IMG/VR virus record: IMGVR_UViG_2724679237_000006
Location: 1-52,515 of that record
Direction: 5' to 3' (one strand)
Origin: a virus
Lineage: Duplodnaviria; Heunggongvirae; Uroviricota; Caudoviricetes
Length of the DNA: 52,515 nucleotides
Positions 46,517-52,515 of this stretch are shown one piece after another (the stretch's first letter is position 1; the number at the start of each line of letters is the position of its first letter). A program made the position numbers and the translations under genes. The notes below the pieces were generated by a model. That model was not told where the DNA came from and ran no database searches. It saw only the letters and a list, made by a program, of their open reading frames with translations.

Positions 46517-47353
46517 TTGGCGTCGCTGGTGGTGATGAAAAAAACACTAAGTGAGGCCACTGCGATGACAGTCCAAATATCTGCGGAATCCCTTTCTCCG
46601 CTACATCATAACCAACTTCCCGTCATCACTACTGAATTGCTTGCCAGTTTGTATGGCACGGAAGTAAATGGTATCCAGCAAAACTTCAAGCGCAACATCG
46701 CCAGATTTGTCGTAGGAAAGCATTTTTTTAAGCTGGAAGGTAATGAATTACGCGACTTCAAAAACAGACTGACAGATAGTCAGTCAGTTGCTAAACATAC
46801 CCGATCCCTCATTCTCTGGACAGAACGCGGCGCAGCTCGCCATGCCAAAATGCTGGAAACAGAACAGGCCTGGGAAGTTTTCGAAAAGCTGGAAGATTGT
46901 TATTTTAGCCAGCGTCCAGAGAGGCGGAGTACAACTACCGATGACCGTACTCCCTTGCGTGATGCCGTTAATATACTGGTCGGCAAGAAAGGCATGATGT
47001 ATCCCGATGCCTACACCATGATTCATCAACGCTTCGCCGTCTCTCACATAGAACAACTGTCACAGACGCAAATGTTAGAGGCGATTGAATACATCCACTG
47101 CCTGCTACTCGATGAAAATCACCCAACCATTCCAGATTTTTCTTTTATCACCACTATCAAAAATGGAAAAGTGACCGGGATGCGCCATGTTGCCAAAGGC
47201 GAACATCTGATGACCTTTGACGCTTTCAAAGAGATCGCTGAGCGGGCAGGGTATCTGGTGATCCACAGCGACAATCTGCGAAGTATGACACTGGATAAAT
47301 TGATGGTAATGGGGAAAAAGTCGGCTATATCCGTTGCTAATTCAGCATTTTGA
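46517..47353 (+). CDS. Phage antirepressor (Bro-N/ORF6N-like N-terminus, KilA-C-like C-terminus)
   Basis: 278 aa; HNQLPVITTELLASLYG...FKRN..RFVVGKHFF resembles antirepressor N-domains; start codon uncertain. Confidence 0.6.
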   Translation: MASLVVMKKTLSEATAMTVQISAESLSPLHHNQLPVITTELLASLYGTEVNGIQQNFKRNIARFVVGKHFFKLEGNELRDFKNRLTDSQSVAKHTRSLILWTERGAARHAKMLETEQAWEVFEKLEDCYFSQRPERRSTTTDDRTPLRDAVNILVGKKGMMYPDAYTMIHQRFAVSHIEQLSQTQMLEAIEYIHCLLLDENHPTIPDFSFITTIKNGKVTGMRHVAKGEHLMTFDAFKEIAERAGYLVIHSDNLRSMTLDKLMVMGKKSAISVANSAF

Positions 47354-47720
47354 CAGGTTGTTTGGGGCGGAAATACTCTATTTGCGCTTAGGATACTTGT
47401 TAGCTACTTCCACTTTTGTCACAAAGCGGACTATCTGGCTGAGCTGAGGGTCCGCAGTGAGTGAGGATCGAACATTTAAGCGTCGGTACTGATGACGGAT
47501 TTGAGGTATTTAAAATATTACAGGAGCTAGTGTGGATGTGACAGACATAAAAGTGGATGCAGTCAGAAAAGACATATGTATAGCAGGCTTCTTCGAGGAC
47601 TAGATCAATCAATAAGATTTAGATAAAATTGCAGTGTTAAATAAAAAGACTAGTAGTATTTAAACTTTAAGTGCGTTAGTAAGGTCGTGCAATTATATAA
47701 AACTAACGTTTTCTGAATGT

Positions 47721-48428
47721 TTGGAGAGTAAAATGTTAGAACCGCCAAAGAATTATAATGAAATGTTACCCATGCTCCATAAGGCAACTTTTATTACTAC
47801 ATTTATATTTTACCTATCATTGGTTATTTATGGCTACATACCATTGGTTGGCATTAATGCCAAGTACATTCCACCAATCAAAGACTACGAAGAATTTATT
47901 AAGTGGATATTAACATTCGGCATATTACCAATTGCATTCTCAATTTTTTGGTCTGTGATTAGTGGGGCTTTAGATCTACATAATAACGTGGCAAAAATTC
48001 TTGGAATAAGAAAAGCATGGGATAATTACTTAATTGTTAAACCATTGGCGCAAGTTGCAGGCATTACAAGAAAATTAACTAGTGATGAATCCTCCAAAGT
48101 AATGAACAAACTGTATTACCCAGAAGTTAATGAGTTAAAAGATAAACATTATGTTGAGCTCTTCTGGAATAAGGTTTATTACTTTTGGGTTTTCTTTGAA
48201 CATACTGTGATTGCATTTATTACTGTTTTAGTAATAAGTTTTGCTAAAATAACCCATTTACTCTCTGTAACCGGTTCTTTAAAAAATCTTTGGTTGTGGG
48301 TTATTTTTATTGTTGTCTTTAATTTTCTTATTTTTATTGCATCCGTTAAACCCAGAACTGAAGGCCAAGTCAGACAAATACCTGATGATAAGATAAAGGA
48401 ATTTTTTAATAATAACAGTATTTTTTAA
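47721..48428 (+). CDS. Polytopic membrane protein (4 predicted TM helices), unknown function
   Basis: 235 aa, AT-rich; hydrophobic segments FITTFIFYLSLVIYGYIPLVGI, ILTFGILPIAFSIFWSVISGAL, YYFWVFFEHTVIAFITVLVISFA, LWLWVIFIVVFNFLIFIASV. Confidence 0.55.
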   Translation: MESKMLEPPKNYNEMLPMLHKATFITTFIFYLSLVIYGYIPLVGINAKYIPPIKDYEEFIKWILTFGILPIAFSIFWSVISGALDLHNNVAKILGIRKAWDNYLIVKPLAQVAGITRKLTSDESSKVMNKLYYPEVNELKDKHYVELFWNKVYYFWVFFEHTVIAFITVLVISFAKITHLLSVTGSLKNLWLWVIFIVVFNFLIFIASVKPRTEGQVRQIPDDKIKEFFNNNSIF

Positions 48429-49094
48429 ATGAGGTTAGTTTTGAATTACAAAATAAATGGAATGACTATACGTTCAGAAAATGCAGCAAAACCGCATACT
48501 ATGCCATCTAACTATCTCTGTAACCATATTGAAAATTCTGTTAAAAATGGCATAGCCCTTGATTTCGGATGTGGAAAGCTTAGATATTCAGAACAATTAG
48601 TAAATAAATTTGAAGCTGTGACGTTTTTAGATTCCAGAAAACAGTTAGAAAGAGTGCAAATTATCAGAGGCGTACAAACCACAATTCCAGAGTATGTGGC
48701 TAATAATTATAAAAATGCTAATGTTGTCCCTTTTGAAAGTATAGATAAAATAAAAGATAATTATGATTTCATACTTTGCGCAAACGTGCTTTCCGCAATT
48801 CCATGCAAATCAACAATTTACAAAATCATCAATGAGATTGGGAGATTATTAAAAAATGATGGTGAAGCAATTATTGTTAATCAATACAAAAGCTCTTATT
48901 TCAAAAAGTATGAGACTGGAATAAAACATTTGCATGGATATATATACCAAAACTCTCGCAATGCTTTCTATTATGGCTTATTGGATGAGAATATTGTAAG
49001 TAAAATTTGCTTGGATAACAATTTAGCAGTAATAAAGTCATGGAGCAAAGCTGGCAGTTCATATGTGGTTGTTGGTAAAAATAAACATAATTAG
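48429..49094 (+). CDS. Class I SAM-dependent methyltransferase-like protein
   Basis: 221 aa; motif I-like IALDFGCGKL, acidic residue after beta-2 (VTFLDS), motif IV-like DFILCANVL. ATG directly abuts the upstream stop (TAAATG). Confidence 0.5.
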   Translation: MRLVLNYKINGMTIRSENAAKPHTMPSNYLCNHIENSVKNGIALDFGCGKLRYSEQLVNKFEAVTFLDSRKQLERVQIIRGVQTTIPEYVANNYKNANVVPFESIDKIKDNYDFILCANVLSAIPCKSTIYKIINEIGRLLKNDGEAIIVNQYKSSYFKKYETGIKHLHGYIYQNSRNAFYYGLLDENIVSKICLDNNLAVIKSWSKAGSSYVVVGKNKHN

Positions 49095-49421
49095 TAAATT
49101 TAAAAATAATATTAGAGGGTGCCATTTTCTTATTACTTATTAACTCGCTGGGGTAGGGGCAACACGCCCCACCTCATCAAGTTACTGCAGGATTATAGAC
49201 TTTTGTCAAAACGTTGGAAAAATTCAGTACAAACTTTTCCATGTTTTTCCTAATCATAGATAATGATGCTCACTTATGTTAACAACTTCTTGTACATAAC
49301 GGTCTTCTTCAACAGGACAGCTATAAGTGAAGAAATAAAGTCGATAAACAATAAAGAGGCTCCAAATAAATATTATTCAATGAAGCCTGCTGTTTATTAT
49401 TTGTTATTATTAAATCGCTAC

Positions 49422-50321
49422 TTATAATTCAACAATTTTTAGTATTATATCAATATTATTTAGCCTTGCAATCTCTGATGAATCGTTTGCAATTTTATCT
49501 TTTAAATTATCAATGTTAATCATATCTTCAGAGCTAATACAAACCATATCACCTTGGTTAACTTTTGATTTGTTCACTATGGCTTGAATAACAGACAGAT
49601 CGTCCATTACACCTCTCAGGAATTTAACCATGCTTTGATCCTTGAAATCAGATATCGATTTTGAACGTTGCTTACGTTGGATTGTTCCTTTTGTAATTAT
49701 TTCGTTAATTTCTTTTAAACCGGCAAGCATATCAGATATGCTTCCTTCGCAACTCATCCTGTGTTTAATAGCATTGCGATTAATAACATTGAGTATTATT
49801 TCGAGTGAATCTCTATCATCCCATGGCAATAATAATGTATAATCCTGATGGCGATGAATGGCATCAAGCATATCAAGGATCATATTTTCATCTGCTTTAT
49901 CGCAAAGTTCATTTACAAAATAGCTGGGGTCGATTACTTTACAATAACTTGGAACTGAGCATTTTGAGCTTTTACAAAACCCAAAAATATATAAAAAAGG
50001 GTATATGTCTTTTAGACTCTTTCCTGATTTATTTTCTTTTTCAAAGGCTGCGATTGTTTTTTTAATTTTTGCCGGGGTTGCTTTCGTTGTAACTTGAACT
50101 GCTATCATGTTTTTATTGTCAGCTAAATCAATGGCGGGAAAGTTAACTTTAATCTGATTCATGTTTTCCAGTTCCCCCATTTTCAGTGCGCGAAACATAT
50201 AAATGGTCAATGACTCAATCATTCTTTCCATGTCATGAAAGCCAGTCTGTTTGCGTTGTTCGATATAAAGCTGAAGTAGCGCAATATCTTTCTGTAAGTT
50301 ACTAATAAGTGGGGCAATCAT
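49422..50321 (-). CDS. SMEK-domain-like protein (N-terminal domain), unknown function
   Basis: 299 aa; N-terminal region ...LENMNQIKVNFPAIDLADNKNMIAVQVTTKATPAKIKKT resembles the SMEK domain signature as recalled. Confidence 0.45.
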   Translation of the reverse strand: MIAPLISNLQKDIALLQLYIEQRKQTGFHDMERMIESLTIYMFRALKMGELENMNQIKVNFPAIDLADNKNMIAVQVTTKATPAKIKKTIAAFEKENKSGKSLKDIYPFLYIFGFCKSSKCSVPSYCKVIDPSYFVNELCDKADENMILDMLDAIHRHQDYTLLLPWDDRDSLEIILNVINRNAIKHRMSCEGSISDMLAGLKEINEIITKGTIQRKQRSKSISDFKDQSMVKFLRGVMDDLSVIQAIVNKSKVNQGDMVCISSEDMINIDNLKDKIANDSSEIARLNNIDIILKIVEL

Positions 50322-50854
50322 AGCTAATAATCCTTTTCAATTAAGTAGGGGATGTGTTTGAGCTTCTTTATTTGACTGTTAGTTTAATTTCTTGTTTTCA
50401 TATTAACAAGCTCTACAATTTTATCAAGATTTCTCAAAAACTAATCCTCCGTGTAAATCCACTAACTATGCTGAATTTATTCCGCTGTGAAACATGTCCG
50501 CTCATGGCTGTGAGTTCAACGGGTCGATGCAACGCCATCCACTCAGTAAAATTGTGTAATTCCAGTGAGCAGGCGAATCTTCAGTATGCTCTAGTTTCTT
50601 ACTCACACCTGCTTATGCTTTAACTAGGTACAATGTAGATAAACTCTCATGTTGATTTATCGCCATGATCACATTTCCGGAAGAAAAATTTTGTTTGTAA
50701 CCTTGCTAGATGAGACAGTATAGATATCATTACATATGAAACAGTACATTAGGGAACACTGAAGGCCGTAACTTTAAAAAATATAATTAATTGTACATAA
50801 TTTTATAACCATCAAGATGGTGGCAATTATATAAGTAATAATAAGGGTTGATTA

Positions 50855-52207
50855 ATGATTAAATTCACAGAAAAGGAAATACAAAATTACATATGGGAAA
50901 ATAGGAACAATTTTCCCGAACTGCTTATTGAACCTGCAGGTCTTGAAGTACTTGAATTCAACGAAGATCTCTCTGATGTAACAGCACAACTGCTAATAAA
51001 AAACAGAATAAATAGTAAACTATCCAATCTTCACTCTAAGCTTTATGGACTGGAATTTATCGGCTGCGAAGTTCCTTTAGAACAAAATTCAAACTCAACA
51101 ATTAGAGCCGATTTTTTGGCTATATTCTGTGATGATACTGGGCTTGCTGTCATAGAGCTTAAAAAAAGTGAACAGACTGAAAGGCAAGCATTCACTGAAT
51201 TGTTAGCATATTCAAACCATATGACAACATTATTTCCATCCATGACGAAAAATGACAGTGTGTATATTTTAATATCACCAATGGAAACCAGAATAGCACG
51301 TGATGCTGTCATCCAAAGTTTAATATTTGACAATAGGGATATCATTGCTTTAATTCCAACATTCTCTGATCCTCTTGATATTACCTCTCTTAAACTTGAA
51401 TTATGGATTCCAGACCAAACAGAGTTAGCGACTTTCTCAAATATTGCATTTAGAGAAGATAATTTTAGTGTCTGTAAATTATCCTGGGAGTATGATGCAG
51501 AGCGATGGGATGCAGCTAGAGGAGAAGAACTTTTACATTCATTTGTTAGTCAATTTGATAACATTTCCTGCCTTGCAGCTCAGTATATGGAAGAATCTGG
51601 AGTTCATGGTTTTACTTATTGCTCTCAGTTATGGCCTGAATTATCTCAGGCATTACCTTTTACGAATTCATTAGTACTAGTTGGCATGAATCCTTATGCT
51701 GTCGGGAGTGTCCAGCATTTATCCACAGAATGCGATAACTATGATGATATACCAGACCCAAATGCTTACACTCCTCACATATCTGAATTAATTGGTAAAC
51801 TAGGTGAAGGAGAATTATATGAGGATAATATTGATGTCCTAAGTGGTTTACATCGTGTATGGAGCTCTCAGTTATATCGTATAGGTAAGCAGGTAATTGA
51901 ACTCACCACTAGAAATACAGATGGGAAATACGTCCACGTTGAATATGGCTTTATGAATTGGGAAATCTATCAAAGGTCACTACTTGAGGATGTTTTCTGT
52001 GAAAACTTCGCTATTAGGTCTACAGGTTTAATACGACATCTCTATACTGACATTCTTAAATTAGATTATGATTTTTGTAAAAATAACGGATTAGAAAATC
52101 ACCCTATTCATGGAGACATGCCATACTTAGGTGTCAATTTTCTTAAATCCCAACAGCACTTTAGAAAATTTATTTTGCGAATGTTCTATGCCGAAATAGA
52201 TGCGTAG
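50855..52207 (+). CDS. PD-(D/E)xK nuclease-like protein, unknown function
   Basis: 450 aa; N-terminal region has a D...E.K arrangement (IRADFLAIF...GLAVIELKKSEQTE) typical of the PD-(D/E)xK fold. Confidence 0.45.
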   Translation: MIKFTEKEIQNYIWENRNNFPELLIEPAGLEVLEFNEDLSDVTAQLLIKNRINSKLSNLHSKLYGLEFIGCEVPLEQNSNSTIRADFLAIFCDDTGLAVIELKKSEQTERQAFTELLAYSNHMTTLFPSMTKNDSVYILISPMETRIARDAVIQSLIFDNRDIIALIPTFSDPLDITSLKLELWIPDQTELATFSNIAFREDNFSVCKLSWEYDAERWDAARGEELLHSFVSQFDNISCLAAQYMEESGVHGFTYCSQLWPELSQALPFTNSLVLVGMNPYAVGSVQHLSTECDNYDDIPDPNAYTPHISELIGKLGEGELYEDNIDVLSGLHRVWSSQLYRIGKQVIELTTRNTDGKYVHVEYGFMNWEIYQRSLLEDVFCENFAIRSTGLIRHLYTDILKLDYDFCKNNGLENHPIHGDMPYLGVNFLKSQQHFRKFILRMFYAEIDA

Positions 52208-52515
52208 TGAGATTTTTTGATTTATCTCTGCTGGAGAAAATTCATGGGTGAGGGAAGAGATAGATAATATTGAAAATAAAACTTTCAAAAGATGTTGAAA
52301 TAAAAAGCATGATCTAAATTATTTTGGCATTCATTTCATGTGAAACAGCTCTTCTAAAAATCTATACAGGCATAGGTGGAATTTTCTCATGATTTTTTAG
52401 TTGTAATTTATCTTTACTGAATAATATATGGGGAGGATTGTCGCCGTAAGCGGCTCGTCAGAACCGTATTGATATTTACTGAGAGCTCAGATCAACTTTC
52501 CAGGGCAACAGATCG

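Follow-up and report, generated by a model that had tools for sequence, protein, structure and literature searches.

A NucS-like PD-(D/E)xK nuclease joined to a family-specific C-terminal domain is a candidate single-gene defence protein carried by a lambdoid prophage and other mobile elements

INTRODUCTION

NucS/EndoMS is the mismatch endonuclease of archaea and actinobacteria (PDB 2vld, 5gke), a core repair gene whose product carries its nuclease C-terminally, behind an N-terminal DNA-binding domain. A NucS-like nuclease is also found in the defence system Shedu (SduA, DUF4263; PDB 8ps4), in which the regulatory part is N-terminal. GAPS1 (WP_005477165.1) presumably unites sensor and PD-(D/E)xK effector in one polypeptide, with the nuclease near the C-terminus (D313, K328). 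Hachiman HamA, a DUF1837 nuclease (PDB 8vxy), needs the adjacent HamB helicase. Type IV (modification-dependent) and type IIS-like restriction endonucleases, with the architecture of FokI, N.BspD6I and the PvuRts1I/AbaSI type, complete the set of described systems that come closest to the protein studied here.

Herein, we analysed a window of 52,515 nucleotides, positions 1-52,515 of the IMG/VR virus record IMGVR_UViG_2724679237_000006 (Caudoviricetes). A gene near its end had been predicted, from the sequence alone, to encode a large PD-(D/E)xK nuclease-like protein with a long C-terminal region, a type of architecture regarded as typical of single-gene defence effectors with added sensor domains. 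This protein is one of many candidate single-gene nucleases, and its family is undescribed; in it, an effector of a known type is fused to a domain that no other family has.

RESULTS

The gene and its nuclease domain

The open reading frame fills 50855-52207 of the plus strand exactly, with an ATG start, a TAG stop and 450 codons for amino acids, and the product is 98% identical to E. coli hypothetical proteins (WP_097478788.1 and P0001). An AAGGG motif resembling a Shine-Dalgarno sequence lies at 50843-50847, 7 nt 5' of the start codon. Considering that the GC content around the gene is ~33%, which makes stop codons frequent, and that 232 homologues were found, this is not a chance reading frame, and the gene called in the original prediction is real.

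Residues 1-185 (50855-51409) constitute the nuclease domain. In the predicted structure, it is composed of an N-terminal helix with the invariant E6, a variable helical insert (residues ~24-63) and an alpha-beta-beta-beta-alpha-beta core, which is the core fold of PD-(D/E)xK enzymes. The catalytic core is encoded at 51068-51163 and includes E72 (51068-51070), D86 (51110-51112) and E101-L-K103 (51155-51163). D86 is located on the strand of residues 83-91 in the context 'IRADFLA', while E101 and K103 are located at the end of the strand of residues 97-102 in the context 'LAVIELKKS'. Across an alignment of 96 sequences spanning down to ~27% identity, residues E6, E72, R84, D86, E101, K103, T108, E109, R110 and Y119 were invariant in all 96, and a family signature, KKSxQTERQ...Y119, followed the catalytic core. 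The predicted D...E.K motif near residues 85-105 was thus confirmed both by its fold and by its conservation.

The C-domain of NucS follows a pattern of a glutamate in the N-terminal helix, then 'E-V-P', 'R-A-D-F' and 'E-L-K-K', and then a Q/Y helix, and the layout of the domain studied here matches this pattern. Because of this layout and the invariant residues, the assignment as a PD-(D/E)xK nuclease is solid: the N-terminal domain has a NucS-type fold with the full invariant metal-binding and catalytic set, E6, E72, D86, E101 and K103. The complete conservation of the active site also argues that members of the family would be active enzymes.

When the whole protein was searched against Pfam, NCBIfam, PADLOC and PHROGs, there were, besides one PHROG of unknown function (4e-11), only sub-threshold PD-(D/E)xK matches (HSDR_N, E 0.0026; REase_II, E 0.0022), of which the HSDR_N match recurred below threshold in 27 of 40 family members. 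PADLOC-DB v2.0.0 (5027 models, dated 2023, with later systems outside it) gave no significant match, the best being REase_II and PDC-S11 (E 0.02), both of which cover the nuclease core only. The original prediction would have been contradicted by a lack of the PD-(D/E)xK fold or by a match to a known phage structural or replication function; the fold was present, and the protein matched no such function. Sequence searches of the PDB with the single protein and two profiles returned nothing credible; the hits to titin kinase (E 0.035) and Gp29.2 (E 0.43) were judged spurious.

Proteins of 473-772 aa from metagenome-assembled genomes (L064-L066; Eubacteriales, Solibacter and Bryobacteraceae) share the N-terminal nuclease domain only, with 24-26% identity over ~160-190 aa, and their C-terminal regions differ. 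These proteins indicate that the nuclease module recombines with other domains, unlike the C-terminal domain described below.

A C-terminal domain confined to one family

The original prediction had left about 340 aa unassigned behind the nuclease core. As the nuclease domain extends over residues ~1-185, the unassigned part is shorter, ~265 aa (residues 186-450, encoded at 51410-52204). Modelled separately (pLDDT 88.7), these residues were predicted to form a ferredoxin-like beta-alpha-beta-beta-alpha-beta core with several added helices. Among the 96 sequences, N271, N279 and P280 of this domain were invariant, and E246, Q258, E262, W369, G391 and D421 were nearly so. A HMMER search of 1.84 billion representative proteins with a profile of the domain found only 96 proteins, and in every full-length match the domain begins at residue ~180-196 of a protein of 430-480 aa, indicating that the domain is confined to this family and is never combined with other architectures. 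Mean pairwise identity was highest in the nuclease core (58%), lower in the C-terminal domain (31%) and lowest in the 293-327 loop (23%). The lower conservation of the C-terminal domain is also compatible with a faster-evolving sensor.

In the fold search against the PDB, the weak neighbours of the C-terminal domain included HUH Rep, Thg1, the CCA-adding enzyme and the Pol I palm, and no known modified-DNA reader fold was matched. One reading along the lines of these neighbours is that the domain, instead of binding DNA passively, belongs to the palm, HUH or Thg1 class as a new module for handling nucleotides or nucleic acids. It would then bind a small nucleotide signal or synthesise it, or else engage DNA covalently, and thereby license the fused nuclease in cis. 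We consider this quite improbable; if true, a whole sense-signal-cut defence pathway would be contained in one polypeptide of 450 aa.

Distribution of the family

The 232 relatives were found in a search of 5.8 billion protein clusters. Nearly all of them are 430-480 aa long and align from end to end. Their sources are E. coli, Serratia (90% identity), Vibrio, Pectobacterium, Aeromonas, Pseudoalteromonas, Bacteroidota, Bacillus and Priestia. When one genome per species was scanned, further members were detected in Cyanobacteria, Elusimicrobia, Campylobacterota, Alpha- and Betaproteobacteria, Pseudomonas and a Methanogenium metagenome-assembled genome. The family also occurs in six IMG/VR viral contigs and, at full length, on plasmids of Gluconobacter and Rhizobium. 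The distribution is thus patchy, rare and pan-phylum, from archaea to enterobacteria. No Pfam or NCBIfam model covers the family, and its members bear no functional name apart from one label, 'DUF91 domain-containing protein'. No description of it was found in the open-access literature; a very recent one is possible.

This distribution bears on whether the protein is a DNA repair or recombination enzyme, either a mismatch or branched-DNA nuclease of the NucS/EndoMS kind or a junction-resolving function of the nin-like region of a prophage. We regard such a role as highly improbable, since the gene is present in just 5 of 5426 complete E. coli genomes, tblastn found no match to the protein in 50,697 GenBank phage genomes, and most homologues lie outside prophages. 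Low GC content together with the patchy distribution points to accessory, horizontally moved cargo, and on the protein side the N-terminal DNA-binding domain of NucS is absent and no NucS model of Pfam or NCBIfam was reached.

Prophage setting and leader

The final 5 kb of the window, which include the gene, have a GC content of 31-35%, compared to ~45-58% over most of the remainder. The segment 47500-52445 is 98.8% identical to a chromosomal lambdoid prophage in E. coli EC28 and four other complete genomes. In the EC28 prophage, the genes for integrase, RepO, a DnaB-like helicase, an ORF6N protein, a membrane protein with a class I SAM methyltransferase, and a SMEK-domain protein (on the opposite strand) precede the gene, which is annotated there as 'hypothetical protein' (WP_097478788.1); several hypothetical genes, DUF1367, DUF1364, the Q antiterminator, lysis genes and the terminase follow it. 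This gene order identifies it as accessory cargo between the replication and late-regulation modules of a lambdoid prophage.

Upstream in the low-GC block, 47721-48428 encodes a predicted multi-pass membrane protein and 48429-49094 a TehB-like class I SAM methyltransferase, the start of which overlaps the stop of the membrane-protein gene. A SMEK-domain protein of 299 aa is encoded on the opposite strand (49422-50321; NCBIfam SMEK_N, 1e-31), and its N-terminus matches a PADLOC model for a short-Argonaute-associated nuclease (5.9e-20). This trio is found at 83.6% identity in many E. coli prophages without the nuclease gene, and the match to these prophages ends near 50502, so that the nuclease gene is a separable module. 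For the same reason, a functional link between it and the trio was rejected. The TehB-like methyltransferase was likewise rejected as a restriction-modification partner, since the SMEK gene intervenes and the methyltransferase occurs without the nuclease gene in many E. coli strains. Given its recurrence in prophages that lack the nuclease gene, the trio may represent one or two further uncharacterised modules of defence type. At the other end, the last 70 bp of the window (52446-52515) are the end of an IS66-family (ISCro1-like) element present in ~1800 E. coli genomes; in this strain it lies ~240 bp past the stop codon of the nuclease gene, and the homology to the EC28 prophage ends there.

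Upstream of the start codon, ~350 bp (50505-50854, plus strand) can be aligned with the region 5' of the 90%-identical homologue in Serratia inhibens, and the cassette therefore appears to carry its own leader. Inside the leader there is a putative promoter-like site, TTTAAA-17-CATAAT (50773-50801), recognised by consensus match only. The search for a terminator-like site beyond the stop codon was negative, and no structured RNA in 47000-52515 was matched in Rfam at E <= 0.1. The conserved leader also contains an ORF of 24 codons (MLIYRHDHISGRKILFVTLLDETV) at 50649-50723. Its start, frame and stop are kept in the S. inhibens leader, 10 of its 24 residues differ, and it has no obvious ribosome-binding site. 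This ORF is probably non-coding; alternatively, it could specify a leader peptide.

Genomic neighbourhoods of the homologues

We called ORFs in 72 fetched loci and clustered the neighbours all-vs-all, with four duplicate or irrelevant loci skipped in the counts. Besides the nuclease gene itself (67 loci), no cluster was present in more than five loci, and those few occupied scattered positions, indicating that the gene is a stand-alone unit. A conserved partner (methyltransferase, antitoxin, helicase and AbiGi were sought) was not found in the 67 loci. Membership in a type II restriction-modification system was rejected, because no methyltransferase is conserved beside the gene.

In the other loci, the 147 genes one or two places away from the homologue (+/-1 and +/-2) were heterogeneous in their Pfam and PADLOC content. 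Old/GajA/AriA-like ATPases occurred four to five times among them, and ArdA, AbiJ_NTD4, resolvase, PIN and SNF2/ResIII twice each. The two ArdA genes fit mobile-element cargo in general, not defence specifically. In S. inhibens, SIR2 and HerA lie directly downstream of the homologue (PADLOC E 6.7e-55 and 7.3e-168); in Priestia megaterium, a gene for an Old-family ATPase-TOPRIM protein lies directly upstream (8.4e-55), and in Aureibacter, a pair of C5-methyltransferase and type II restriction endonuclease does so (3.5e-130).

Several homologues are carried by other kinds of mobile element. The homologue of Pectobacterium polaris sits in a P4-like satellite (AlpA, D5/alpha-type primase, Ogr/Delta, integrase next to smpB), between a delta-like gene and int. 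P4-like satellites have a defence hotspot between psu and int (PMC9122126), and the Pectobacterium slot is equivalent to it by position only, as no psu gene was recognised in the element. In Vibrio parahaemolyticus, the homologue lies behind zot, where an inovirus prophage ends, and in Vibrio splendidus, it closes a PM2-like prophage and has HicAB and ParDE as neighbours. Directly after an integrase is its place in two viral contigs. Thus, four very different kinds of mobile element, namely lambdoid, inovirus and PM2-like prophages and a P4-like satellite, carry the same cargo. The inovirus slot of V. parahaemolyticus also contains, 80 bp downstream of the homologue and on the same strand, a gene for a 238-aa PLD-like protein (L078/L079, 11398-12114; PADLOC PDC-S69, 2.4e-14, with weak DrmC-like matches), possibly a second cargo nuclease or phospholipase. 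In Aeromonas veronii, the homologue stands alone between the genes for transketolase and alcohol dehydrogenase, with no mobile-element signature.

Taken together, the association with mobile elements and with defence systems strongly suggests a role in anti-phage defence. The proposal of a single-gene defence effector with an added sensor domain was therefore supported in part: the gene stands alone in 67 loci, is cargo of mobile-element hotspots and lies beside SIR2-HerA, Old and restriction-modification genes, an association in each case, whereas the C-terminal domain is family-specific and not a recognisable sensor domain, so that its sensor role is putative.

Mobility of this kind could also mean that the cargo serves the element rather than the defence of the host against phages. 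The product might then be a counter-defence enzyme, attack competing elements, act as an addiction module or be a free-standing selfish (homing-type) endonuclease that drives its own propagation. A leader of ~350 bp travels with the gene in a one-gene cassette, the gene is a lone insertion between housekeeping genes in Aeromonas, its homologues reside on prophages, a satellite and plasmids, and ArdA genes flank it in two loci. We still judge this reading unlikely. Absence from all 50,697 GenBank phage genomes would be unusual for a phage counter-defence or homing gene, a cognate immunity or antitoxin gene was not found in the 67 loci, and SIR2-HerA, Old and restriction-modification neighbours are typical of defence islands. 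For a homing endonuclease in particular, a length of 450 aa with a large, conserved second domain is atypical.

A sister family paired with AbiGi

A protein of 403 aa represents a sister family and occurs in 16 E. coli plasmids of ~111 kb, which are non-mobilizable and carry cobT, a DNA ligase gene and an integrase gene. These plasmids resemble phage-plasmids of the SSU5/pHCM2 type. The 403-aa protein (phrog_30092-like) is a true but distant homologue, with 24% identity to residues 2-277 of the protein studied here (BLASTP E 6e-13; PHROG match, 4e-11). The nuclease D/ExK motifs and the first half of the C-terminal domain, including the 'HGF' strand, are common to both, whereas the C-terminal half of the sister protein is unlike that of its relative, and the sister, itself uncharacterised, is paired with AbiGi. 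On plasmid NZ_CP061757.1 (L073, 5147-7206; also in L074), an AbiGi gene (Pfam 4.2e-25; PADLOC 6.1e-47) is followed 27 bp downstream by the sister gene. No PADLOC model, AbiGii included, matched the sister protein, and the two genes may form an undescribed pair of AbiGi plus nuclease. The position of the sister gene directly behind AbiGi ties the wider superfamily to a component of abortive infection. When the AbiGi protein of the phage-plasmid was compared by BLAST with all neighbours of the family studied here, there was no match.

DISCUSSION

From its sequence features and context, the protein is probably a defence nuclease in the general sense. As a self-contained nuclease on a mobile element, it would protect the host, here a lysogen, against incoming phages or other foreign DNA. 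The N-terminal domain would cleave DNA in a Mg2+-dependent manner, and the always-fused C-terminal domain of ~265 aa would decide what is cut. Since the gene is never accompanied by a methyltransferase, an antitoxin, a helicase or an ATPase, the discrimination between self and non-self must be built into one polypeptide.

There are two obvious modes for this discrimination, direct recognition of foreign nucleic acid and auto-inhibition released by a phage trigger, and we weakly favour the first, because polar residues of the C-terminal domain are invariant from archaea to enterobacteria and its weak fold neighbours include domains that handle nucleic acids or nucleotides. In this mode, the C-terminal domain may read a nucleic-acid feature of the invader directly, for example base modifications, free ends or an unusual DNA structure. 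Such a mode would be closer to that of type IV restriction enzymes or Shedu than to the sensing of a phage protein. We put forward a defence nuclease with direct recognition of this kind as a tentative reading, plausible in the light of these sequence patterns.

In the second mode, the protein would be an abortive-infection or dormancy nuclease resembling GAPS1: the C-terminal domain would keep the nuclease inhibited until a phage protein (capsid, portal or DNA mimic) is bound, and indiscriminate cutting of DNA or another phosphodiester substrate would then stop the infected cell. The evidence of genomic context is the same for both modes, and the link of the sister family to AbiGi, a component of an abortive-infection system, speaks for triggering, as do the greater variability of the C-terminal domain and the 293-327 loop and the precedent of GAPS1, a single-protein PD-(D/E)xK defence with a capsid protein as its trigger (bioRxiv 10.1101/2023.03.28.534373). 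Triggering is nonetheless a doubtful reading, considering that the invariant polar residues of the C-terminal domain are kept across phyla whose phages share few proteins and that the domain order of GAPS1 is the opposite one. Counter-defence, competition between elements, a selfish endonuclease and a repair or recombination enzyme are less likely readings.

A protective role against phages would enlarge the known defence repertoire by a small one-gene system (1.35 kb, with a leader of 0.35 kb in addition), spread from archaea to enterobacteria. The target of the C-terminal domain, once worked out, could point to a new means by which foreign DNA is distinguished from self, and if recognition is specific, the protein could yield a new nuclease reagent. 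Even without a defensive role, the family would be a good illustration of a nuclease that is horizontally mobile across phyla. With regard to its control in the host, a bioRxiv preprint entitled 'H-NS silences antiviral immunity through 3D chromatin compaction' (10.64898/2026.09.05.749240) mentions a NucS-like protein in an E. coli anti-phage context, and its premise is that H-NS silences AT-rich immunity genes of mobile elements. By analogy, such silencing could apply to the cassette described here, with its GC content of 34%.

Compared with the known systems, the protein falls outside NucS, Shedu, Hachiman and type II restriction-modification, as well as outside the systems modelled in PADLOC-DB v2.0.0. 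The likeness to NucS/EndoMS is structural only. The nuclease of the present protein starts at residue 1 with no DNA-binding domain before it, and none of its Pfam or NCBIfam matches at E <= 1 was a NucS model; in contrast to a core repair gene, it is an accessory of mobile elements with an extra C-terminal domain of 265 aa and an unrelated, ferredoxin-like fold. Hachiman differs in its dependence on HamB, whereas the gene studied here has no conserved helicase in 67 loci, and the PADLOC HamA model did not match the protein. The regulatory part of Shedu is N-terminal, whereas here the domain order is reversed and the C-terminal domain is unrelated, and neither the SduA model of PADLOC nor DUF4263 matched. 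GAPS1 is similar in being a single polypeptide, in its carriage as mobile-element cargo and in its widespread but patchy occurrence, including Vibrio and E. coli; it is set apart by its described architecture, with the nuclease near the C-terminus instead of the N-terminus (D86 and K103 here). The gene is solitary, its C-terminal domain matched no known reader fold, and type IV and type IIS-like restriction endonucleases are among the closest known systems. By analogy, the protein would work most like the single-polypeptide PD-(D/E)xK defence proteins, that is, Shedu, GAPS1 and the type IV/IIS restriction enzymes.
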